DNA of 63,193 bases, counting the filler, from Rhabdomonas costata (lineage: Eukaryota): assembly GCA_019059605.1 (NCBI GenBank). It is 31 parts of 31 records of this genome, joined end to end, with 100 filler letters (N's around TTAATTAATTAA, not from the genome) between each part and the next. Parts side by side here need not be neighbours in the genome. Positions count along the whole stretch, not along the records: positions 1 to 1,947 come from JAHMHO010007117.1; 30 more parts are not named here. One strand, given 5' to 3'. This document shows, piece after piece, positions 1 through 55,029 of the stretch. Every line of letters begins with the position of its first letter. Position 1 is the first letter of the stretch. Both the position numbers and the translations under genes were made by a program. The notes beneath the pieces are model-generated. The model was not told the origin of the DNA and did not search any database. It saw only the letters and a program-made list of their open reading frames with translations.

Positions 1-507
1 GTGGCATGGTATCAGAACCACCATCTTGGTTGCCCGATCCGTGACCGTCAACACCTCGTTCACCTCCAAGCCTTTACCAGAAAACTTCCACGGACCTGGC
101 GGCATGGAAACGAAATCCATCGATATAGATTCCCATTTCCTCACTGGCACCTCCAAAACCTTGGTGTGACATTTCGGCAAATGGTGCTCCGATTTGCATC
201 TCTGGCAAACATCACAAGTACGCACGTAAGCTCGTACCTTTTTTTTGATTTTCTTGAACGTGTACGTCCGCTTGATCATGGCGGCCGTCCTGGCCACTCC
301 CCAATGACCTGCTGCAGGTGAGTCGTGGTACCTGGAAATCACCTCTTGTTCTCTCTGGATTGGTACCACAATCTTCCCTGACTCCCAAAGTCTGCCATGG
401 TGCCACTTTGTCGGATCCAAAAGCTCCGCTGTAGTCAAGTTGAAGTACCTCTTCCTCACTACTGGGTCTAACCAGTAATCTGGCCACCAATCGTCTGGCT
501 CCTCCTC
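1..507 (-). mobile_element. Ty3/gypsy integrase fragment (HHCC zinc-binding domain and start of rve core), open frame running off the contig end
   Basis: Manual translation, absent from the ORF track: 169 codons with no stop, EEEPDDWWPDYWLDP...GKIVVP...YHDSPAAGHWGVARTAAMIKRTYTF...VRAYVRTCDVCQRCK...VPVRKWESISMDFV...VLTVTDRATKMVVLIPCH. Classic gypsy H..H..CxxC followed by W.SISMDF. Confidence 0.92.
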
Positions 508-712
508 TTAGGCTACCCTCAGGGGTGCACAGAGTGGTCCATCAAAGACATCAAAGACATCACTTACTAGCAGATGGTTGCGACATTCTCAACTATGTAC
601 TGAGCAACACTGGGAAGTACTTCAGCACTCAGTATCTTAGTCAGGGCTCTCCAAACAACACAAGCACGCTGTTGATTCTCCACTCTCAAACCACTAACGC
701 TGTGGGGCCTCA
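508..712 (-). repeat. Candidate 3' LTR (~205 bp) of the MTase-bearing element
   Basis: On the minus strand it starts TGAGGC and ends GCCTAA (imperfect terminal inverted repeat; GCCTCA expected). It is immediately preceded by a G-rich tract (GGGTGTGTGGGTGAGGGG, 713-730), and its end abuts the integrase frame exactly. No second LTR copy is in the window. Confidence 0.5.
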
Positions 713-1013
713 CCCCTCACCCACACACCCATGCACTCTGTCTCACCGCTGCTCAGGATGGTTGGCTCTCTCTCTCCGCTGTGGATTTGGCGCACCACGA
801 GCGCAGTACCTGGGTCTCGCTGTGGAAGTAGCTCGAGTGGATGAACTTCCACATCCTCTTCTTTAGGCAAGTTGTTCCTTGATTCTGAAATGGAAAACAA
901 AGGTACAAAAAAAACAGGACAAAGCACCGTCTGATAACACACACTCCACTCCTCTTACCCACTTGTGGATAACCCACTCTAACCTCCTATGTGGATAATC
1001 CAATGACTACACT

Positions 1014-1460
1014 CTACACTCCATCAATCTTTTTTCCAACCACGTAGGAAAACACCGTGGCCCACCACGGCCTTGGTCGAAGATTTTCTGTGGATCCTAA
1101 ATACAATCTCCCACTTCACATCTGGCATCTGATTGTCAAATGATACCAGGGGGCTTCAACCCACTCTGGTGTCACCAAAAGCAGCCGAGATCTTTCTCGA
1201 CAGGCCTTTGCCAAAACATGTTGAATGAGGCTCCATGGATGGTTGGCATACAGACACACATATGGGCTCCATCTGTAGACAAACGCATTGCAGACCATCG
1301 CCTCCACATCCATATCGTCAACTGTAAAATACCGCGGCAGCTGATGGTGCTTTGACGACGCAAACAAATCGACACAATGAGTCACCAACAAATTTTGCAC
1401 ATTGCTATGAATATCGTAGGTTCTAACTTCACTTCCTCTTTCGGCCCAAAATCTGGACGT
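1014..1460 (-). pseudogene. DIRS-type N6-adenine DNA methyltransferase (Dam-like) domain of a retrotransposon, degenerate
   Basis: EEVKLEPTIFIAMCK/NLLVTHCVDLFASSKHHQLPRYFT...AMVCNAFVYRWSPYVCLYANHPWSLIQHVLAKACRERSRLLLVTPEWVEAPWY...RPRPWWATVFSYV. It has the DLFAS, LPRY, AF..W, YANPPW-like and P.W...PWY motifs of the DIRS MT domain. One frameshift near 1400, one internal stop at 1116, and NPPW reads NHPW. Confidence 0.85.
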
Positions 1461-1947
1461 ATAGCATTTCCAGCAATGAGGCGCAACATCACCTCTCCAT
1501 ACATATCCTCTTGGGAGTTCTCCTCATCCGTCTCATTCTGTGAATAATCATCAAAATGGACTCGCAGCGTGTCAAGCGACCCCTCTGTGTGCCCTCATTC
1601 ACCAAGCTGTACGGACCTCCTATCCGTCTTTTCTTGCAACTCTCTGAAACGCTCCTCCATGCGTTCTCCACAAGCTCTGGATTCGGGGGAAACTTCAACC
1701 GTTTGCGGCTCCACGTACCGTCTCTCTCCGTACTCTCCTTTCCACAATTCTTCTTTGGCATCGTCCTGCCATAATGCTTCTGACCCATCCGCACTTACTT
1801 CCTCAAAATCTGGCTCTGGACAACGATGGTACTGCTCCGGTTCTACCGCTACAACCTCTTTACCTTTTGAAGCTCTTCGTCATCAAACTCTTCATCTTCC
1901 GCTTCCAGATCGTATTCCTCTGGTCTGGCTGGAACCTCCAAACTCTC
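1461..1947 (-). pseudogene. Acidic linker upstream of the MTase domain (retrotransposon polyprotein remnant)
   Basis: ESLEVPARPEEYDLEAEDEEFDDEE/...VEPEQYHRCPEP...VEPQTVEVSPESRACGERM...EDMYGEV, reading into the MTase. One frameshift and one stop. Homologous to 2900-3400. Confidence 0.75.
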
Positions 1948-2724: not shown

Positions 2725-3989
2725 TCGAATGTAAAAACAGTGCAACCCAATGCTTCGTCATCTGTCTCATCCAACGCATAGTACCTCGGAAGCTGGTGAT
2801 GCAAACAAATCCACACACGGCGTAACCATCAAATTATAGCACATTGCCATAAAAATGGCAGGATCCATATTTACTTCCTCCTCTGGTCCAAAGCGTGGCA
2901 GAGGAATCTGCCCATACAACGTTGGCAATACACTTTACCGTAACGATCATCTCCACATACAACAGACAACTCGTGTCTGTCCTCTGACGGCTCTTCTTCT
3001 GTATCGCTGTGCGGACTCAGGGGTCCCTATCCATCATCTCCTGTCGTGGAACTCTCACTGACTCTCGCCATTTCTTGCAAACCTGCAACCATGCGTTTAC
3101 CCCAAGCTTTCGCTTCGGGCGACACGTCCGCTGCTACCTCTGGCTCCACTTCACGCACTTCACTACTGGATGTGATACCGCTAGCTTCCCTGATACACTC
3201 TAGCCACTTATGCAATTCTGGCGACACTCCATTAATCTGCTCCACACTTGGCTCTGGTTGTTTGTTATACTGTCCCGGATCATCTGCTTCGATCTACTCA
3301 TCTTAGTATTCCTCATCTGCAAGCTCTTCATCCTCCACACTTATGTCGTAATCCAACTGTCTTGATGGAATCGGCAAACACTCTACCGCTTCTGGTTCTC
3401 CACCTTCTTCACCATCTTATGCATCCAGCTCCTCTAAAACTTCATGATTTTCCACTGAACTACCTCCGCAAAACTGTTCTCCTTCTCCAACCAAGACTGG
3501 TCTTTCAGATTCTCGACCAGCTCCAAATTCTGTACTCCGTTCCATCTCCACCTTGACCTTGTCCGTCACTTCCATAACCTTCAGCACCATCTTCGTCGCC
3601 TTCCGGTAACTACAACACTAGCGTGTGCCCTCTTGGCAAATGATGATCTGCCTTGCAACGCTGACAAATGTTACAGGTACGGACGTAAGCCTTCACCTTC
3701 TTCTTTATGTTCCTGAACATGAAAATCCTCTTCAACATGGCTGCGGTCCTTGACACTCCACAATCGTTGTACTTAGAAATGACTTCTTTCTTCTTCTTCT
3801 TGTACGGCACAACAATCTTTCCTGCATCACAAATCCGCCAATGATGCCACTTAGTTGGGTACAGCAACTCCGATGTCGTTAAATTGAAATACTTCCTCCT
3901 AGTCGCTGGATACAACCAGTAGTCAGACCACCAGTCTTCTGTATCTACGTAATCCACTCTCATTGGCGCACAAAGTGACCCACCACCCC
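2725..3989 (-). mobile_element. Degenerate Ty3/gypsy pol 3' part: integrase zinc finger, core apparently deleted, acidic linker, N-terminal half of adenine MTase domain
   Basis: 3963-3610: EDWWSDYWLYP...GKIVVP...VKAYVRTCNICQRCKADHHLPRGH. Then an acidic tract, ECLPIPSRQLDYDISVEDEELADEE...VSPEAKAWGKRM. Then ~2900-2725: PRFGPEEEVNMDPAIFMAMCYNLMVTPCVDLFAS/HHQLPRYYALDETDDEALGCTVFTF. Confidence 0.85.
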
Positions 3990-10206: not shown

Positions 10207-12090
10207 GGATTACGGCCTTTCTAACCTCTACAGAGAGAAATGTCAGCGGTGCCACTTCCACAATTTCCAGAGGTATGGTTAACGTAAGTGCTGTGCAGAG
10301 AAGTGAAAATTTGTTCAATACGGCGACACCGCCAACGTTAGCAGCCACAATTCCGGCGAGTTCTGTAATGTTTTCCGCACCTCCACAGCCACAAATTAAT
10401 GCGACGCGTACGCCTTCTCCAGAGAGGAGGGTGACTCCATCCAGATAAATGTTGGCGTTCAGAGGTTGATGATACACGGGAAGAGGAGGCCGAGGTTACA
10501 TATCACCTTCACCGTCTAGAAGCGGTAGATCCAGAATTCCCTCGTTTACCAGGATTGGAGATGTCTCCCCGCCTCGACCCCCAAGCCCGACTTCCACAGG
10601 GAGCAGGCAGCAGTCACCTTTTCCGAGTTCAAGTTTGGAGAACGCGAAGCCGCATGTCACTTCAAGAGTGTGCATGTATTGTGGAAGTAAGAGCCACGTT
10701 TATAGGGATTGTAAATTGGCTAAGACGGAGTTGGTTCAGAGAAGTGTGCCGAAGGGGTCAGTTGGAGAATTTCAGAAGTGTGTAGATCAGTCAAACGAGT
10801 GGGGGCAGGAGACAGGGACGCTCCCGCCACACCTAAGAGGCCCACTTCGTCCACATTCAGGACGCCAGCCAGCGCAAGTGTTGTGCAGAGAGCTCCAGGC
10901 ACATTACAGCTAAGAATATTGCAGAGACCACCAGAGCCTGTGCTCAGATTAACCAGAGTTGATCAGGTTGAGCAGCCCCGAAGCCCCAGCCCACGCAGAG
11001 TGACACCGGAGGCAGCCCGAGAGAACATTCAGAGTGCCACTCCAGAGGCAAGCGTGGAACAAGTTGAGAAGAAGGGTTCAGAGCCTCAGACCAGTTTCCA
11101 TAAGCCATAAAGTGCACGAGCGGGCTCATTGGTGGTGTTGAAGTCCGATGCAGAGCGGAGCGGTTCCTGACGGGTTCAGAAATTTCATAGGAGTAATAAG
11201 TAAGAGCCGGAATCGGTCCAGAGCAGACGAGAATTGCGGGAAATGTTGTGCGGAGAACCATTAACTAATGCGGAGTTAGGGGTTGTGTGCCACCGTCCAC
11301 TTTCAGATGTTTCCAGAGAGGTCACAAACCACCAATTGACGGTGTTGGGTGCAGAAGGATAAATCTCCTTAAGAGTAAGGGGGGGACATTCGCATAAGAT
11401 TCGGAAGTGGTCAGTGGAGCCAGAAAGTTCCACAGAATTGTGTTAGTGGAGTGTGGTGGCCGTTCCACATGGTGCGGAGTCTCTTCCAGAGTTGATTTCA
11501 GATGGCGCTATTTCCACAGTGGAGGTGGGAGAGGTCACTCCGACTAAGCAGGACCAGCGATCCATAGCTAGGGCTCAGGAGCCTGAGTGGAAGGTCAAAA
11601 GGAATTTGCGAGATTCTCCCAGGAATGAAGTTGAGAAGTTAATTAAGGAGGTGGACCACAGCATTTGTGGCCCCCCTTGTGCGGTGTTACCAACACCTCC
11701 AGAGATAGAGAAGTTAAACCAAAAATTTGCTCACATATTTCCAGCGTCAGTTTCGGGAGGTTACCCACTTCGAGGAGAACGGACCACAGGATTAATTTGA
11801 AGCCGGACAGTAAGGTACCAGCCCAGAGGCTGTACCGAGTGTCCCCGGCGGAAGATGTAGAATTGCGGAAGCAGCTGAAGAGTCTCCAGAAGCTTGGTTT
11901 TATAGAGCCAGCAACCTCGCCTTATGGCGCAGTGGTGCTGTTCGTTCCAAAGGCCAACGGTAAGTTGCGGTTGTGCGTGGATTACGTACCGTTGAATGCG
12001 ATAACTGTTACAGATGCGTACAATTTACCCCGAATTGACGAGATGATTGGTGAAAGGCGAAGTTGTTTTCCAAACTAGATTTGCATGCGG
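10207..12090 (+). mobile_element. Degenerate Ty3/gypsy retrotransposon: gag C-terminus with CCHC zinc knuckle and N-terminal reverse transcriptase
   Basis: CMYCGSKSHVYRDC (~10670-10710). RT start DHRINLKPDSKVPAQRLYRVSPAEDVELRKQLKSLQKLGFIEPATSPYGAVVLFVPKANGKLRLCVDYVPLNAITVTDAYNLPRIDEMI, then SKLDL in a shifted frame. Stops and frameshifts throughout. Confidence 0.93.
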
Positions 12091-15000
12091 GATAAATTGT
12101 ACGCATCTGTAACAGTTATCGCATTCAACGGTACGTAATCCACACACAACCNNNNNNNNNNNNNNNNNNNNNNNNNNNNNNNNNNNNNNNNNNNNTTAAT
12201 TAATTAANNNNNNNNNNNNNNNNNNNNNNNNNNNNNNNNNNNNNNNNNNNNGGGTTGTTGGAGTATAGCCTTTGTGACCAAAGTGGCCCATCGCCCGAAC
12301 TGGAGTACTCGTGAATGCACTCTCCTCGGGGCAGCGCATTTGGCTTGTGTGTCATATCGGCTGGATGTGCTAGTGCTTCAGATACCTCGTTCAGGGGATT
12401 TCAGAAAGAAAATTGAGGGACCACGCATTATAACATTTTGGTAGCGAAAGCGCCGAACCGCAAACACTGTGTCTGTGCTGGGATGGGGCCTGGGAATCCT
12501 AAACTTCCAGAGTGGAACTATAAAGTGATGGCCTTTTCCTCGGATGTCAAGCTACTGAAGGGCAAAACAGTGCTCGCGTGGTTTTAATAGGGTTATGGAG
12601 GCATCTCTCTTGCAATGACCTTCGAACTCATGTGCAGTTGTGTCAGATACATTGCCCGTATTGAACTTCTTTTGGTTTGGCTGTCGACGGCCCACCGCAC
12701 TCGTGATGGGTGGGAGAACGCCCGCAGCCTTGTTAAGGTTGTTGGATGGCTCTGTCTCTTGCGATAGCTTGTAACCTTTTGTTCAATACCGGTGGATCTG
12801 TTTAACTTGGATGTGCTGCTTTTCGGAATGCCTGTTGCCTCCTCAGAAAACTGTCCCAACCCACCGCTTGTCTACGTCTCTTGGTTTTAGCAAAGGTTTT
12901 AGCAAAAGAATCTTTTTAGTATTGGGGTTTTCATATTCTTTCGTTCCCCGTGGTGAAACGCTCTAGTTGGGGTCACCGCCAGCATGCAGCTGGTTGGCAG
13001 TGCCTTTTATGGCAGTGGAGCCAAGAGTGACGCAGCTGGATTCTACGGGGGTATGTCCCGCCCTCCTCCCTGCGGACACAAAACGGAAGGTCTTTGGTAA
13101 ATTCTGAGGTGCACATCCAAGTCCAGTAGTGAACTAGTGAGTTTATTTTATCAATACCTTGGTGATTGCCAGTGGTACTCATGCTGACCCCACCGCTCAA
13201 TTGTCATTCGGATTATGATTTTGGGCCCAAAGATTAGGGCCAGTTCAGTTGAGAATGAGTTTGATGGGATAGGGACTGCACCCGACAAACCACATCTCTG
13301 GCCGATTGCAGAACCGTACAATGCATTTCCCTACGCAGCTGCCGCTCTCACCTGAAGGTGGACGAGGAGAACACTACGGGCCGCACGCCCCCGGTGTGCA
13401 TTCCGATTCTCCGCAGCAGCTGCACAAAGCTGGAGGCTCGGGTGCCCAGCTGAATGAATCCCACCACACCCAAGGGTACCAGTGGGACCAGGGCTGGCGG
13501 CACGAACTCCAGGGTGAAGCCAATGTCCACTGCGAAAAAATGTACGGAGCCGGTGAAACTTGGAGAGCGCTGCCTTATTGCCACTGTATGCGCCAGGAGT
13601 GACACATGGCCAACGCAGTCCTGCGGTGATGCAACAGTGGGCGAAGCGGACTGAAGGACTAATGCACCAAATAGCAAAAATAATAGGAGGAGAATCCTTC
13701 CAAATACGCATTAACAGTGAAAATACAAAAATTAGCATCTTCAAAAACACTCCACGAGACCATCATCTCCCCACCACAGTCCGGCACAGCACCAAGTAAC
13801 AGCGGAGAGGGAAAAAAATGGAAGGATGGAGGCAATGAAAGAGCACACAATAGAAGAAGAGTGGCAGCTTCTTGTGGTGTTGTGACACGCATAGCACATG
13901 AATCTCGATTCCTTTGGGTGGTATACGTGACCGTTAGTTTTGGACCCTCCAGCAACGCATCGGACACTCAGCGCTGGAAAATGATACCGCAGCATTGTGC
14001 ACTGAAGGAGTGCACGCGTGTAAGCGCACTCACGTTCTCCTCTTCTCTTTGCATCTGTGCGGCTGTTGTGTGCGCCGGACTTTGAACACTGGACTTGTGT
14101 GTGTATGATTTCTTCTCCTGAAAACCATTCTTAACTCATGTGCAACGGAGCTTGAGCGGCATCCCCATTGTTGGTGCTGCTTTTTAAAGCGCGGNNNNNN
14201 NNNNNNNNNNNNNNNNNNNNNNNNNNNNNNNNNNNNNNTTAATTAATTAANNNNNNNNNNNNNNNNNNNNNNNNNNNNNNNNNNNNNNNNNNNNGGGGTT
14301 TTGTTGAGATTGATTGGAACGCAAGTTGGTCCAACAGCAATGGTGTTGCAAAAACCTTTGCACATCTGAAGAGAAAATGGGACCAAGAAGATACGAGGGC
14401 GTCGAAGAGACTGGAACACCTTACACGCAATGGAACAGCGAGGAAACCACAACCCGCCAGGTTCGGCCGGAAGCGGCTCCACCTGAACATCGAAAAAAAA
14501 AGGGTCTCCAAAAAAGTCTGCGCCCTACCGCCAGAGCAGCTGCATGAGAGCAGCATTGACATGACCACATTGCCGCGTAAGATTAGTTCAATTGAGCCAA
14601 AAACCATCTTCATTGGGATCTTTTCCGGGGTTCCGTTCTCCTGCTTCCAAGCGGGATTGCCAACTCAGAAAGTGGTTTACGATGCTTCGGCCGATGTTCT
14701 CTGCGCATTCCAGCTGTTCTTACATAACTGTTCGGTTGCTTGCCATACAGTCTGCAAGAAGGTGTGCTGGATAAACAAGCAGCCCTCATAAAGGGGTTTG
14801 GTAGTCAGCGCACTTTCCACAGCACCCGGACAATGGTCGTTTCCTCCAAGGACTTTACCCATCATAGCATAGTGGGAGTCGATTTTCGATTACCAATCGT
14901 CGATTAGTTTCCCGGCTCAACGTGCATTTGCAGGAAAATTCCGGTTTTTGATTATTGAATTCCTGCCTTCTGTTTGCCCAATTACCGCTTGCCGAAGGGC

Positions 15001-37971: not shown

Positions 37972-40900
37972 AGCCCCAAGTAAAGGAGGCCCCTCCGCTG
38001 TACAGAGCTGCTGAATGCAGCCTTGCGCGGTTGAGCATCAGCACTTGGGAGGTGGCACAGCTCACCCTGGTGGATTGGAGACTGTGCTTTGGCTAGGCAA
38101 GCTTGTGCACTCCTCGCAGGTGAGGGGAAGCATGACAGCCACTACAGCTCTACAGTTCAGGCCGTCCCCCCTGCCGTGCGAGGGAAGGAGTGCTGGCACA
38201 AGGACTTCGCCTCCGAGTTGTGCTGTGTCCGTGCGTGCGTGCGTACGCGCGCGTGAGTGTGTGCCTCCCTTTTGCCCGTGTTATCGATGTCATCTTTGCC
38301 CAGCGTTGCGGAGCACAGATGCGTGAATGGTGCTCGCCGCTGCCTTATTTTGTTGACCGAGAGGCGGGCCACCCCCGATGGGGGCAGCAGGGTCTTTCCG
38401 GCCTTCCTAGCTTGGATATCATGAATGTGATCGAGTCAAACAGCAGCAGCAGCAGCCCACCAAAGCCTCACATTCACCCAACACCAAGTCCACCAGTCAC
38501 CAATGCCGTAGTCACTAATACCAATCGCTCCCTTTCCAATCACACCATTACTACAAGCTCACCACCACACCGCCAGCCAACAATCGGGGGGTTTTCAGGT
38601 CATCCCGACATATCGTGTTTCATTAATATCGATGACTCAAGGATTTGAAGCAGGTTATATCGTAAACTGAGAACCTGTAATTTTTCGGCGAAAAAACAAC
38701 CACNNNNNNNNNNNNNNNNNNNNNNNNNNNNNNNNNNNNNNNNNNNNTTAATTAATTAANNNNNNNNNNNNNNNNNNNNNNNNNNNNNNNNNNNNNNNNN
38801 NNNAGTCAGCTGAACTTGCTGAAATGAAATGGGTGGTTTGCGTGTCCTCATGGGCCGCAGGAGTGACCCCGAGGCTTCCCACGCTGAGCAAGCCCACGGG
38901 GTACTGCGTGGCTGCGCTGCCCATGGAGCCCTCCGGCAGCGCGTGGGCTCTGCTGCTACGGCGCTGCGCGGGGTGTGAGGAGTGCCCGGCCGTGCGGCAG
39001 GCGTGTTGTGCGGCGTGTTGTGGGCTATGAAGTTCTGGTTTCACGGAAAAACTTGTCACTGACATGGATGTGTAGTGTGGTGCGGGAATGGTGAGAAATG
39101 TCGACAGGCTCCAGTCTCTTTTGAAGAAGCCGCATCTCTCCTGCATGCGGACGTATATTTTTCTGTTTCACTGAACAGGTCTTCGCAAAGCTTTTGGAGG
39201 TGCTGTGCAGCCCCGTGCTCAGCGCCGACCCCAGCACCATGGCCGCAGTGCTGCGAGTGCACCACTTTCTTTTCTCCGTGGCTGCTCCACCATGGGCTAC
39301 CACCACCACCAACAACAACAGCAGCAACAACAACACTGCCCCTGCAACTGCCTGCGTTGTGTGTACTGTCCAGGCGGCATCCTCCCCTCAAGCCTCACCT
39401 GGGCCACCTTGGTGGCCCACGGCAAGTTCTTCCCTTGGCCCTGTTCCAGCGCTCGTTGGGGAAAAGAGGCCCTCGGGACCAGGTCTGCCCCTGAATCTCA
39501 CCCCAGCCCTGTCTACCGCGCTGCTCCCAAGCTTTGTCAGTTTGCTTTGCGGTTTTGAGATCCCACAGTACAACAGTACAGTGGGACAGTGGTTTGAGAT
39601 CCCACAGTACAGAGCAATTCCATCGCTGCTTCTGCTGCATCCGTTCGGGCTGCCTTTTGTACGTGTTGCCATGCAGTTTTTAGCTCGCCCACGCAGTCGA
39701 AGAAACTGTCTCCCCACGTATGCAATGGCACTGAAGAGAGAAATGGCTTTGACCCAACAATATCGACCGAGTTTCGGCTCCCGCGCACCCTTCCATGTTG
39801 TGCTGGCCAAATGCAATGGCCAGCAGTAAGGCGGCTCAAGGCCTCAGAAGAGTCATTTCTCTTCCACCGGTCTCACTGCACGTGGTCACACGAGATGCTG
39901 CTGCAAGCAGCGACCGACCACGAGAAGAATGCCATAAAGGCAACCTTCTGTTGCGGCACTGCAAAAGGTCCTCCTTTGACGGGATTTTTTTCGAGTAGAA
40001 AGTGAAGAAGTACATCCCCTACAATCTGACCTCCTTCATCACACAACCCGATGTGCTGGCCAATTACATAGCAACGACACAGGCGACCGCATTCTGTGCA
40101 CGCTGTCTGTGATTGTGAGTTACAATACCGAGCTTTCGTGCGAGAGGAAAGCAAGTAAGTAGGTGAAATTGGCGCAGCCTTGGACGTTCAGCACACGGCA
40201 GCTATTGTTACAGACCAAGTCTCAGTGAAGGGAAAGTACAACTGGCAAGCATCGATAAACTGTTCGCACTGGTCGAGTGCTGTACGTTTGTGTCGGTCCG
40301 TTTCTTTTTATACCCCCAGCACGAGCCGTTCTTACCGAAAGTTCTGTATTGCTTCGCGTTACTGCGTCGACATCTGGGTCCAGTTTTTTTTTCAGTTGTT
40401 CCCTCTTTCTAGTTGAACCTGCGCTCGGACCAACCACCTGTTTCAGAATTGTGGGCCATCCCACTTTGCTGACTCACCTTTTCCAGTCATCATTATGGGG
40501 AACATTGACTCTGGGGAATGGGGGTCTGACACCTTGGCTTCATTTTCTTTAGCATTTTCATTTTCCTTTAACCGGAGGAAACGAAGTCACTGGCGCACAA
40601 AGTGGTGCTGAATTCTATTTTTTTCGGCCGGTCCACCATGCAGTGGAAGAAGGGCCTTCGAGGCGGTTTGGCGGACTTGTAGTGCTCTTTGTGTTGATTC
40701 GGTGGCTGTTTGCGTTTTACTGAATGAACTGAGCAGTGCTCCGATNNNNNNNNNNNNNNNNNNNNNNNNNNNNNNNNNNNNNNNNNNNNTTAATTAATTA
40801 ANNNNNNNNNNNNNNNNNNNNNNNNNNNNNNNNNNNNNNNNNNNNTGTGTTGGTGGGACAGCCGTGCAGGGTGGGGATGCCCGTAAGGACGCGGTTTTCT

Positions 40901-41258
40901 TCGTGGACACGGGGATCTCTGTGGGTGGCAACGAGCCTGCGATACAGATCGAGGTGCCGCACCACGGCTGATTTTTAACCTCTCTGAAATTTGCCCTTCT
41001 CTCCTCTCACTCCGAGCCCACACGAAACCCGCCGGAACGATGGTAGACGTCAACAGTCAACAAGCATGCGAGTTCCTGGCGAGCTGCAGCGATTTGCTCG
41101 GCAGAAAAAGAGCGCCGCTTCCGCCCTCTCCACTACGCCGTTTCCGTCATAGATCATTCACCTTTCCTCTTTTGACTTTTCCCCTTCTGTTATTCACGAC
41201 GACGATAGCGAGATGGGTGCTGGCGGTGGGTAGTGGTGGGGTTCTGGTGCTGCCACAG

Positions 41259-42380
41259 GTTCTGGACCCCAAAGGGGAGTCCGTGGCCATCGCTGAGCTG
41301 GTGGACCACGAGGACGGGACCTATACCGGGGGAGAGTTCCACCCCAACATCAAGGGGCAGTACAAGGTCTCCGTGAAAGTATGGGGAGAGCCCGTCTCGG
41401 GGAGCCCGTTCGCGCCTGTCTTTGAGGCGGCCAGCAGGGAGCGCTCATTCGCCAGCGGACCGGTGTGAGCCATTGTGGTCCCCCTCCGCCCGCCTTCGAC
41501 CTTTGTGTTCACGTGTCCCAATGGAATGCACGCTGCGACTGACAACTGTGCGCGTGCCCTACCATGATAACTCTATATTTCTATTTTCGTGATGCCTCTG
41601 TGGTGGTATGGTTGGCAGAAGCTTCTTCTCTGCTTTTTCCACATGTTGCTTCAGGGTGTCGAGGGCGGCGGCAAGGCGAGAGTGGGCCGGGTGATGGCAT
41701 TTACAATCCACTCGAGGGACCAGAGTGGAGACCCCCTCAAGGAAGGTGGGGAGCCATTCAAAGTTCTGGTGAAGGTCCGCGCTGGGCTTTTCTTGGCCGT
41801 TTCGCCCAATTCTTCTTCGACCCCTGTCTCCGAACATGCGCAATGGCACGCGTACAAAGGAAAACATTTGTGATCCACTTCTCCACTCTTTCTGATTCCC
41901 GTCCTTGCTCTCACTCTCTCATTGCCTGTACTCGACTATACAGTCTCCGAAGGGTACGGAGCCGGCCACCGTGGAGGACAACAACGATGGGACCTACACT
42001 GTGACGTATACTCCCGAGGTTGCGGGGTCCTACCAGGTGCGCAAGGATGTATGGTGGTAGTGACTGCTGCTTGAGACAGTTGTGGACATGTTCTGATGTG
42101 CCGAGGAGATGCACTACAGCTGCGGGCACCCCATCTGCTCATCTGCTGCTACGGGACAACTGACCGGTTGGTCCATGTGTCCACGGGAAGTTAGTTCAGG
42201 AGGTAGAGTGAAGGTGGACATCTCGCTGCACAGGTGGACATCTCGCTGCACGACAACCCCCTCTCGGTGTGCCCGTACAAGCTCACGATTCTGGATGATC
42301 GCGAGGCCCGACCGCGGAAGTTGAAGGATACTCGCGCGAGGCCCTCTTCCTCTCGCAGCCCCGTGCGCAAGGCCCGACGG
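41259..42380 (+). CDS. Filamin/ABP280 Ig-like repeat protein, internal exons
   Basis: Exons 41259-41462 (LVDHEDGTYTG...GQYKVSVKVWGEPVSGSPF...SFASGP), 41655-41774 (GVEGG...AFTIHSRDQSGDPLKEGGEPFKVLVK), 41944-42036 (ATVEDNNDGTYTVTYTPEVAGSYQ) and from 42234 (VDISLHDNPLSVCPYKLTI). All GT-AG, phase 0. The end of the last exon is uncertain. Confidence 0.9.
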
Positions 42381-53088: not shown

Positions 53089-55029
53089 GTGGTGGGGGAA
53101 ACCGGGGAGCTGCAGTGGCTAATCACTGCAGCGGGAGGTCTCGTAGTTTCTCTGATTTCGGTATTTTGTCCGATTCTTCTCTCCTCCGGCTGGAAATGCG
53201 GCGACCCCCTCTTTCCTGTGCGGGGAATCTCGCCAATCCCTTAGCAGGGAGACCCGCAGCAACACATGTTGCCTCGAGCAGGTATGGTGACGGCACTGAA
53301 GTATCTTTCGTCACTTCGCGGTCTCAGGAACGTCTGCTGTTAGGCTCCCTTGAAGGGCGGTCCTCTTTTGTCAGCAGCAGCCAAGCCGGTCTGCGTACTT
53401 CTGCGGACCGCACTGTTGAGCCGGTCCTTGCGGAGGTCGTCTCGCAAGCATCTTTCTCGACCACGGATGCAAGGACTTCTGGTAGAATTTCGACGGCCAC
53501 AAGAAGTTTGTTACCAAGCAACGAAGTTTTGCACAGCAGAAGTCCAAACGAAAGCCCAGCGGAGTTGCGCCTTCAGGTTCTCTCGGCCTCCTCCCCGGAT
53601 CACTGTGCTGCAGGGCTACGACAGCCAAAGGCGGGTCTTGCAGAAAGTATTTCAGATACGGTGGACTCTGTGAAAGTGCGATATCGCGGGGAGGCTGGGG
53701 AACGAAATCCAATGGGACCTTCTTCGCGAGATCACACTTTGTCCAATTCCTCGATGGTGCAGAATGACCCCGAGAGGCGAACGAAAGGCCACGATCAGCA
53801 ATATGCCAAGATTCCACTCACTGTTCAAAGCCTCCACAGCACCAAGGAGAAAAACTTGACCATGAACTTCAAAATTCTGAGGTATTCTCGTGAATTACTC
53901 TTTTTTCTATACCATGCATCTGACTGCTTTTGACAGGAAATTGCAAGCCTTGACAGCCTTTTCATCTTTTCATTCCCTCAATGGTTATGCCCAGCCCTTT
54001 TATGTTGGCGCACTGCTTTTTATAGGTGGATGCTGCCTTTGCCCAACGAAGCGGATACAGAATGCTCCGGGGAGTCCTCTGAGCATGCGGAGTCCCAGGT
54101 CGCAGAGCCAGGTTTGAACCCCCCTTGGGGGTCTTTTTCCGGCATGATTTTTCGATTCGACTTGTCGCGGCGTTCGGCAGCCTAATTCACACTGAGGCAA
54201 AATGACTTCTTGCATGTGAACCTCCGAACAAAAATTTGGGATTCGCAATGCTCTCATATACGGGATCTTTGTTGTGCTAACATATGTGCACTTCAGCCGT
54301 GAAAGCGACCTCTGTTCCTATTCTTGCGTTGCCTTTTCGCGTGCTATTTCTTTACGTCCAGGCTCTGCTGCGGGACCGAACGTCGAAGTTACCGATGCCG
54401 CGTCGCTTTCAAGCATTGGCCACGACATCCGGACCCCTTTAACCACCGCCCTCACAGCCCTGCAAATTGTTCTGGAGGAGGGCTTGGCGGAGAAGGAGGA
54501 CTGCCGGGATTTGCTGCAGAAGGCATGGTCCGCCTTGCAGCATGCCCTTGTGCTGATCAACAACTTGCTCGACATGAGCAAGCTGCGCAGTGCACGGATG
54601 AGGGTAGTCCCGCAGCGGGTGAGTGCCCGCCGGCTTGCTATCGAGGTTCTTCGTATGGCCGAGGTCCAGGCAGCACAGCAGAGAACGGAGCTCCTGCTGG
54701 ACGTCACCCCCAGTGTCCCTTCCTGCGTGCTCTGTGACCGGGTGCTTCTGCAGCGGGTTCTAACGAACCTTGTCGCCAATGCCATGAAGTTCTGCCACGA
54801 CGGCAGAGTCACCATCACGGTTGACTGGAACGCTGCTCTCGCGAAACTCAACGTCACTGTGACAGACACGGGCATTGGAATGACCGAGGAGGAGCTCAGG
54901 TGTCTGTTCCAGAGGTTTTACCAGGCCGACCATGGCCGAGGTGGCACCGGATTGGGCCTCACGATCTGCCAGCAGCTGGTCTCCCAGATGGGCGGCAGCA
55001 TCACAGCCAGTAGCCCCGGCAAAGGCAAG
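53089..55029 (+). CDS. Signal-transduction histidine kinase (HisKA + HATPase_c) with Ser-rich N-terminal region, three exons, truncated by contig ends
   Basis: Exons ..53881, 54026-54111 and 54362.. splice GT-AG in phases 2 and 1. H box GHDIRTPL, LINNLLDMSKL, N box NLVANAMKF, G1 DTGIGM, F box LFQRFYQ, G2 GTGLGLTIC. Confidence 0.95.

Follow-up and report, generated by a model that had tools for sequence, protein, structure and literature searches.

A methyltransferase (MT) domain is reportedly, after Goodwin and Poulter, a component of DIRS1-like tyrosine-recombinase retrotransposons, and chromoviruses are Ty3/gypsy elements that end in a C-terminal chromodomain. In the accessible part of a recent preprint (Fernandez-Moreno et al., bioRxiv 10.64898/2026.05.21.726589, May 2026), Ty3/gypsy elements with DIRS-derived DAM domains are described and named DAM-LTRs (LTR, long terminal repeat); at least four captures from DIRS are inferred, and five lineages are distinguished (Chlorophyta chromovirus-like, Chloro-Ochrophyta, Ichthyosporea, Pyropia and Euglena). 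That portion of the text also states that, to its authors' knowledge, the domain had not previously been reported from non-DIRS LTR elements, and gives higher N6-methyladenine (6mA) and transcription levels for the DAM-LTRs of two ichthyosporeans. Retrotransposons with captured cytosine methyltransferases, Gypsy-DNMT3 and SymbioLINE/DIRS-DNMT, have been described as well (PMC5890265, from the part of that article available). The present study concerns positions 508-1947 of a 63,193-base stretch of Rhabdomonas costata DNA (assembly GCA_019059605.1; the whole stretch is referred to as the window), which, judged from sequence comparison, very probably hold the decayed 3' end of pol from a DAM-LTR type element, an LTR retrotransposon of Ty3/gypsy type.

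The locus and its relatives share with DAM-LTRs a Ty3/gypsy-type pol with integrase, a DIRS-derived Dam-like MT and an NPPW-type motif and, like the ichthyosporean lineage as far as the preprint text at hand describes it, the relatives have no chromodomain match in an otherwise conventional gypsy order; they differ in that the window copy is dead and fragmentary. The domain is homologous to that of DIRS elements (DLFAS...QLPRY...DAF..W...NPPW...P.W..PW), yet the DIRS MT directly follows RNase H in an element that uses a tyrosine recombinase, whereas the present MT comes after integrase-SH3 and an extended acidic linker (some 250 aa in the relative P0153) and belongs to a separate MT clade. As in chromoviruses, an accessory 'epigenetic' module is fused to the integrase C-terminus, although the module here is a methyltransferase-like domain and not a histone-mark reader. 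The elements with cytosine enzymes likewise captured a DNA methyltransferase into a retrotransposon pol, but theirs belong to the C5-cytosine family as opposed to the Dam-like adenine family, and the captures were independent (PMC5890265, within the portion available). An earlier note on this DNA, made from the sequence alone, knew of no description of the gypsy-plus-Dam architecture; the architecture is already in print as DAM-LTRs and is a known kind, though only since 2026, the sole source found in a literature search being the partly accessible preprint cited above.

The window consists of 31 separate contigs of 1934-1955 nt, with joins of 44 N, TTAATTAATTAA and a further 44 N (from 1948-2047 and then every ~2.04 kb); adjacency across these joins is biologically void and linkage is meaningful within one contig only. 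The argument of the earlier note from gypsy-type neighbours is void, since those neighbours lie on unlinked contigs. Contig 1 (1-1947) carries the MT and contig 2 (2048-3989) a second, related copy. The MT, a domain of DIRS/Dam type at the C-terminal end of pol, occupies 1014-1510 on the minus strand, as assigned by phmmer, alignment and motifs, tblastn and the PF05869 matches of its relatives. The minus-strand open reading frame (ORF) at 1116-1523 contains in succession CVDLFASSKHHQLPRYF, NAFVYRW, LYANHPWSLIQHVLAK and LLLVTPEWVEAPWY, and its translation runs up to its stop with LLVTHCVDLFASSKHHQLPRYFTVDDMDVEAMVCNAFVYRWSPYVCLYANHPWSLIQHVLAKACRERSRLLLVTPEWVEAPWYHLTIRCQM. A phmmer search of 1.84 billion representative proteins with this domain returned 1215 proteins at E<=1e-3, 58 of them at E<=1e-10, with a best value of 1.1e-26; by these scores the homology is far above chance. 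Counts of neighbouring domains were made on 152 relatives, and alignment and motif counts on the 137 matches that cover the domain. The consensus of the latter (..DLFAS..hhQLPrY.S...D..A..DAF...W......YANPPW.LI.rVL.K......lLV.P.W..aPWy) is, on its conserved blocks, that of the MT domain known from DIRS elements. Residues 702-869 of P0153 align by tblastn onto 1510-1020 (59% over 130 aa).

Upstream of the MT, positions 1523-1947 on the minus strand form a predicted acidic linker that reads into the domain and is cut by the contig end at 1947, an assignment drawn from the ORFs, their composition, weak homology to the linker of contig 2 (34% over 73 aa) and a position that matches that of the acidic linker of P0153. 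The three ORF pieces have 14, 25 and 15 aspartate plus glutamate residues (D+E) against 4, 16 and 6 lysine plus arginine residues. A Pfam scan of the linker ORFs at 1595-1879 in contig 1 and 3027-3293 in contig 2 gave no family above threshold and no RNase H, as expected from the earlier claim that the sequence upstream of the MT is something other than RNase H.

The architecture of the relatives places the domain behind an integrase. Among the 152 relatives, 28 have DIRS-type reverse transcriptase (RT)/RNase H close upstream of the MT, six have integrase or SH3 upstream (P0006, P0016, P0068, P0119, P0151 and P0152), and none has integrase downstream. Local DIRS RT/RNase H probes matched 28 relatives, and among the integrase-linked ones only P0068 responded, with a weak RT match. 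P0068 is a single protein of 1124 aa with the order RVT_1-RT_RNaseH-H2C2-rve-SH3-MT; P0119 reads rve-SH3-MT, and the pairs P0006/P0151 and P0016/P0152 read SH3-linker-MT. In P0153 (875 aa), H2C2-rve-SH3 is followed by a 252-aa linker with 72 D+E residues and then by the MT; this protein was the top match in a search with the integrase of contig 1 (66%) and is also the row closest to its MT (61%, 98 columns). P0155/P0165 and P0158 extend the order to RT-RNaseH-H2C2-rve-SH3-linker-MT, and Pfam scans of P0165 and P0158 place an aspartyl protease in front, with RVT_1 and RT_RNaseH/RT_RNaseH_2, in the same ORF. No Pfam chromodomain was matched in the four relatives scanned (P0068, P0153, P0165 and P0158). 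Additionally, L001, a 1168-nt metagenome contig and the sole locus from a metagenome scan with a six-row alignment, has an acidic linker followed by the MT; upstream of its linker an integrase SH3 tail was recognized by eye only, and Pfam gave no family in that ORF. As L001 stops with the MT ORF, it is uninformative about LTRs.

The cluster of P0158 comprises 34 members at >=90% identity; of the 15 listed, 8 have full-length ORFs (1442-1443 aa), which lie on different contigs of 6-11 kb. Among the members listed, all 8 full-length ones have NPPW, and variable columns are alike in the MT (2.6%) and the integrase (2.1%). From these sequences, the P0158 family looks recently active with its MT intact, an environmental-eukaryote DAM-LTR.

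Phylogenies of the MT agree with these architectures. A quick tree with 138 rows placed the window MT in a 58-row set (SH-aLRT, a Shimodaira-Hasegawa-like approximate likelihood ratio test, 90) that contains each of the 6 integrase-linked rows but no RT/RNase H-linked row out of 28. A careful tree was built from 74 selected rows, namely the 58-row set together with 12 of the 28 RT/RNase H-linked rows and with P0153, P0155, P0158 and L001. It separated 10 integrase-linked from 12 RT/RNase H-linked rows with support of 99/97, with the window MT on the integrase-linked side and within a 15-row clade (97/85) that also holds P0153 and L001.

Contig 2 preserves part of the same order. On its minus strand, an H2C2 zinc finger of an integrase, cut off before the rve core (3604-3981; PF17921 at 1.9e-09, tblastn and tblastx matches to the contig 1 integrase, and alignment to residues 42-170 of P0153), is followed by a linker (about 2937-3383) and the N-terminal part of an MT (2727-2931), the feature at 2727-3383 being collinear by tblastx with 1947-1275 of contig 1 and recognized by matches of the MT relatives. 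This second MT reads CVDLFAS and HHQLPRYY, has an internal frameshift and is truncated after about 65 residues. An integrase upstream of the MT in the same element is thus partial in the window, with H2C2 of contig 2 only, and complete in P0153, P0119, P0068, P0155/P0165 and P0158. The core conclusion, that an integrase-type family carries the MT at the C-terminal end of pol, is supported at the level of sequence because of the order in contig 2, the architecture of P0153, P0165 and P0158, the MT trees and the upstream sequence other than RNase H. The corresponding proposals of the earlier note fared well: the Dam-like MT on the minus strand behind an acidic linker was recovered by phmmer, by motifs and by linker composition, its location at the 3' end of an integrase-type Ty3/gypsy pol, in the slot of a chromodomain, holds in its core through contig 2, P0153 and the trees, and the suggested MT phylogeny grouped the window copy with integrase-linked MTs, apart from those of DIRS type.

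The copy in contig 1 is dead. Comparison with contig 2 revealed a frameshift in the MT near 1391-1400, and an in-frame TGA stands at 1116-1118, beyond which the conserved C-terminus (LRPRPWWATVFSYVVG) continues in the same frame to a TAG at 1014-1016. The catalytic NPPW position is occupied by NHPW (1233-1244); across the 137 aligned relatives the same motif is NPPW in 82, FPPF in 16, NPPF in 14 and NHPW in 3. The frameshift, stop and NHPW substitution noted previously were all confirmed, and the linker has lesions besides, namely a frameshift at about 1850-1880 and an in-frame TGA at 1595-1597. Because of these two frameshifts, two in-frame stops and the substituted catalytic motif, the copy is inert and cannot perform the methylation proposed below.

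In intact relatives, pol encodes protease-RT-RNase H-integrase (H2C2, rve, SH3), a long acidic linker, a Dam-like MT of ~150 aa and a stop, the MT being a descendant of the DIRS MT lineage. The domain would be made as the C-terminal tail of the integrase and would enter the particle and the cDNA/integration complex along with it; adenines of the new cDNA copy or of the target could be methylated there, and a host bearing 6mA might then treat the insertion as permissive chromatin. The same methylation model is proposed in the available text of the preprint (bioRxiv 10.64898/2026.05.21.726589). An adenine methyltransferase fused to a retroviral-type integrase suggests a mobile element that marks its own new copies or targets, an idea already published and under test elsewhere.

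Several observations weigh against this interpretation, beginning with the identification of the MT itself. The peptide of the ORF at 1116-1523 has no match of its own in Pfam (E<=1) or NCBIfam (E<=10), and the contig 1 MT is therefore assigned to its family by transitive homology. In the Pfam check that had been suggested for this peptide, it was relatives that gave the match: P0061 (36.9 bits) and P0093 (36.0 bits) exceed the cut-off of PF05869, the Pfam Dam family (28.1 bits), and 13 of 30 members of the contig 1 MT clade match it at E<=0.01 (best 3.1e-06); P0068, P0153, P0158 and P0165 have no match to it at all. An AlphaFold (AF2) model of the MT from a 30-row alignment has a mean predicted local distance difference test (pLDDT) score of 74.1, with core blocks mostly at 85-93 and alternating strands and helices, and a Foldseek comparison of the model with the PDB gave no match at E<=1e-3. 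The weak matches of highest probability are the adenine methyltransferases PCIF1 and Erm, with template modelling (TM) scores of 0.43-0.48 (PCIF1: probability 0.82, TM 0.47), and the fold evidence is weak but, for a predicted model, agrees in direction with a methyltransferase reading. The profile of the 30-member clade had a single weak match among PDB sequences, an uninformative DUF4827 protein (E 7e-4), and the ESM Atlas returned eukaryotic clusters without a name (0.88-0.90); in one of them 10% of the members carry PF05869, which is a lead only.

The local context tells against it as well. Within contig 1 no integrase lies upstream of the linker, where the contig ends, and LTR, primer-binding site and target-site duplication are not demonstrable in the window contigs. 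In contig 2 some 0.9 kb, the rve core and SH3, is missing between zinc finger and linker, and an inverted fragment abuts its truncated MT: at 2252-2722 on the plus strand lies a piece of gypsy-type pol that spans the protease/RT junction and the beginning of RT, identified by 69% nucleotide identity to contig 6 and by tblastn matches of P0068, P0155 and P0158. Both local copies are rearranged or mis-assembled. At the level of function, expression of related DAMs in E. coli deficient in Dam did not raise 6mA, according to the accessible part of the preprint (bioRxiv 10.64898/2026.05.21.726589).

The arrangement of contig 1 has its own puzzle, which the earlier note left unweighed. A 5'-truncated integrase of the same family (1-546, minus strand; H2C2 at about 190-366, start of the rve core at about 1-144) follows the MT on the same strand, so that the integrase lies downstream and not upstream of it, the reverse of the order in every relative. 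Its ORF at 1-507 matches PF17921 at 6.1e-19 and stays open between position 507 and the end of the contig, while a TAA stands in frame at 508-510; the product is 66% identical to residues 40-215 of P0153 and 60% identical to the contig 2 integrase. The order could be real, with the MT situated between RT/RNase H and integrase within one pol; linker, MT and integrase do stand on one strand within 1.95 kb, and the preprint's Chloro-Ochrophyta DAM-LTR clade, as presented in its available text, has DAM flanked by RT and integrase (10.64898/2026.05.21.726589). There is nevertheless only a slim chance that this is so, given that the MT frame stops where the pol of relatives ends (the stop at 1014-1016 is where P0068 and P0155 end and is 6-15 residues from the ends of P0153 and P0158), that the next 467 nt hold neither an ORF nor homology to integrase-bearing relatives, and that integrase homology begins abruptly at a GPLCAP motif near 546, without the RNase H end motif that precedes the integrase in P0155, P0158 and P0160. 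Integrase follows the MT in none of the 152 relatives and precedes it in the nearest relative and in contig 2. The simplest reading of contig 1 is two copies end to end through a nested insertion in the same orientation: one copy would have landed immediately upstream of the integrase of a second, with 547-1013 taken up by the 3' untranslated region (UTR) and short LTR of the incoming copy. A short-read assembly chimera at this join is about equally probable. A stand-alone tandem integrase-linker-MT unit of ~3 kb was also considered, since P0153 takes up the whole of a 3084-nt contig and contig 1 has the look of a circular permutation, and was rejected because the module sits within a full pol in P0155 and P0158 and the longer P0163 seems to begin with the RNase H end (a weak AADA..R motif at its start was seen by eye; blastp gave no alignment).

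With the order in contig 1 so disturbed, and that in contig 2 as well, adjacency is weak evidence, and the MT might instead be a fragment of a true DIRS (tyrosine-recombinase) element beside unrelated gypsy debris. The domain family is classically a DIRS feature, and the 28 relatives with DIRS-type RT/RNase H just upstream show that association among the matches themselves. Such an origin is nonetheless very improbable: the window MT falls together with every integrase-linked MT and apart from those linked to RT/RNase H, its nearest relative has integrase, SH3, linker and MT in one ORF, the sequence upstream is an acidic linker like those of P0153, L001 and P0006 and not RNase H, and the same order is found twice in the window. 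No tyrosine recombinase was present among the scanned ORFs of contigs 1 and 2, which are short contigs and were scanned without a dedicated whole-window probe; both contigs are fully accounted for by other parts. A different challenge accepts the integrase-type element and questions the enzyme, proposing by analogy that the MT is no longer catalytic and would instead bind DNA or chromatin as the tail of the integrase and so direct insertion, in the manner of a chromodomain. The MT does occupy the chromodomain slot in relatives where no chromodomain was matched, and FPPF replaces NPPW/F in 16 of the 137; the absent 6mA gain in E. coli points the same way, as does the observation, in the part of the preprint at hand, that eukaryotic DAMs are without the CD-1 and TR-1 parts of bacterial Dam (10.64898/2026.05.21.726589). 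Against these points, NPPW or NPPF is retained in 96 of the 137 relatives and NPPW in every full-length member listed for the P0158 cluster, and the preprint's accessible text gives a higher 6mA level for DAM-LTR insertions than for LTR elements of other kinds (10.64898/2026.05.21.726589). A purely targeting role is unlikely, albeit a good deal easier to entertain than a DIRS fragment.

On the reading of contig 1 as the decayed 3' pol end of a DAM-LTR type element, the pol stop is followed on the minus strand by 467 nt without assignable coding sequence (547-1013), marked by two purine runs (854-864 and 766-777) and one G/T-rich run (718-731). This stretch may hold a 3' UTR, a polypurine tract and an LTR, each as a candidate only. 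Of what the earlier note had placed behind the MT, non-coding sequence and a G-rich tract stand in part, as about 280 nt without an ORF and the G/T-rich run. The candidate LTR did not find support: no LTR-type direct or inverted repeat was found within contig 1, which at 1.9 kb is too short for both LTRs, and no further copy of 547-1013 is present anywhere in the window. As separate observations, an intron-like signal (GTAAGA, a poly-T tract and TTTCAG) was seen by eye on the minus strand at about 884-957 (~75 nt), and a short tandem duplication (GATGTCTTT, twice) lies exactly at the integrase join, near 545-565.

The family of the window and its many environmental relatives have in common the order protease-RT-RNaseH-integrase-SH3, a linker of roughly 125-285 aa, the MT and no chromodomain, and the linker is markedly acidic in P0153 and L001. 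It is possible, though doubtful, that they constitute a DAM-LTR lineage beyond the five of the preprint or a new host group for DAM-LTRs. The preprint's screen, as given in its available text, used hmmsearch at 1e-5 (bioRxiv 10.64898/2026.05.21.726589), and a hidden Markov model screen at that threshold would under-sample the clade because most of its members score poorly against Pfam Dam; the clade of the window MT may perhaps be under-sampled there. The clade is common in environmental eukaryote assemblies, with 58 rows among the 137 best-covered of the top matches, and its weak detection by the Pfam Dam model together with its abundance matters for surveys of how widely such elements have spread. 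The window itself adds little to the idea of DAM-LTRs, as it offers two dead, rearranged fragments and no full copy; from these two fragments it follows that the genome once hosted such a family.

Elsewhere in the window, contig 6 (10207-12151) carries on its plus strand a gypsy-type gag/pol piece that is unlinked to contigs 1 and 2. Its ORF at 10473-10913 has a CCHC-like zinc knuckle by eye and no Pfam match, and a protease/RT junction and RT start at about 11519-12092 is 59% identical over 128 aa to P0155, an MT-bearing full pol; by this similarity, contig 6 may represent the 5' portion of an element of this kind, though unlinked. An Rfam scan of the whole window gave no matches. Contig 10 has on its plus strand a 422-aa open frame over most of the contig (19067-20332) in which no Pfam family was found at E<=0.001. 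In contig 27, a 270-aa open frame on the plus strand (54220-55029) encodes a histidine kinase with HisKA (2.8e-10) and HATPase_c (9.8e-27); its nearest ESM Atlas clusters are bacterial or unrecorded, and it is either a host gene or part of a bacterial contaminant contig. On contig 21, an ORF on the plus strand (40887-41468) contains a filamin/ABP280 repeat (PF00630, 4.2e-09) and is presumably a fragment of a host gene.

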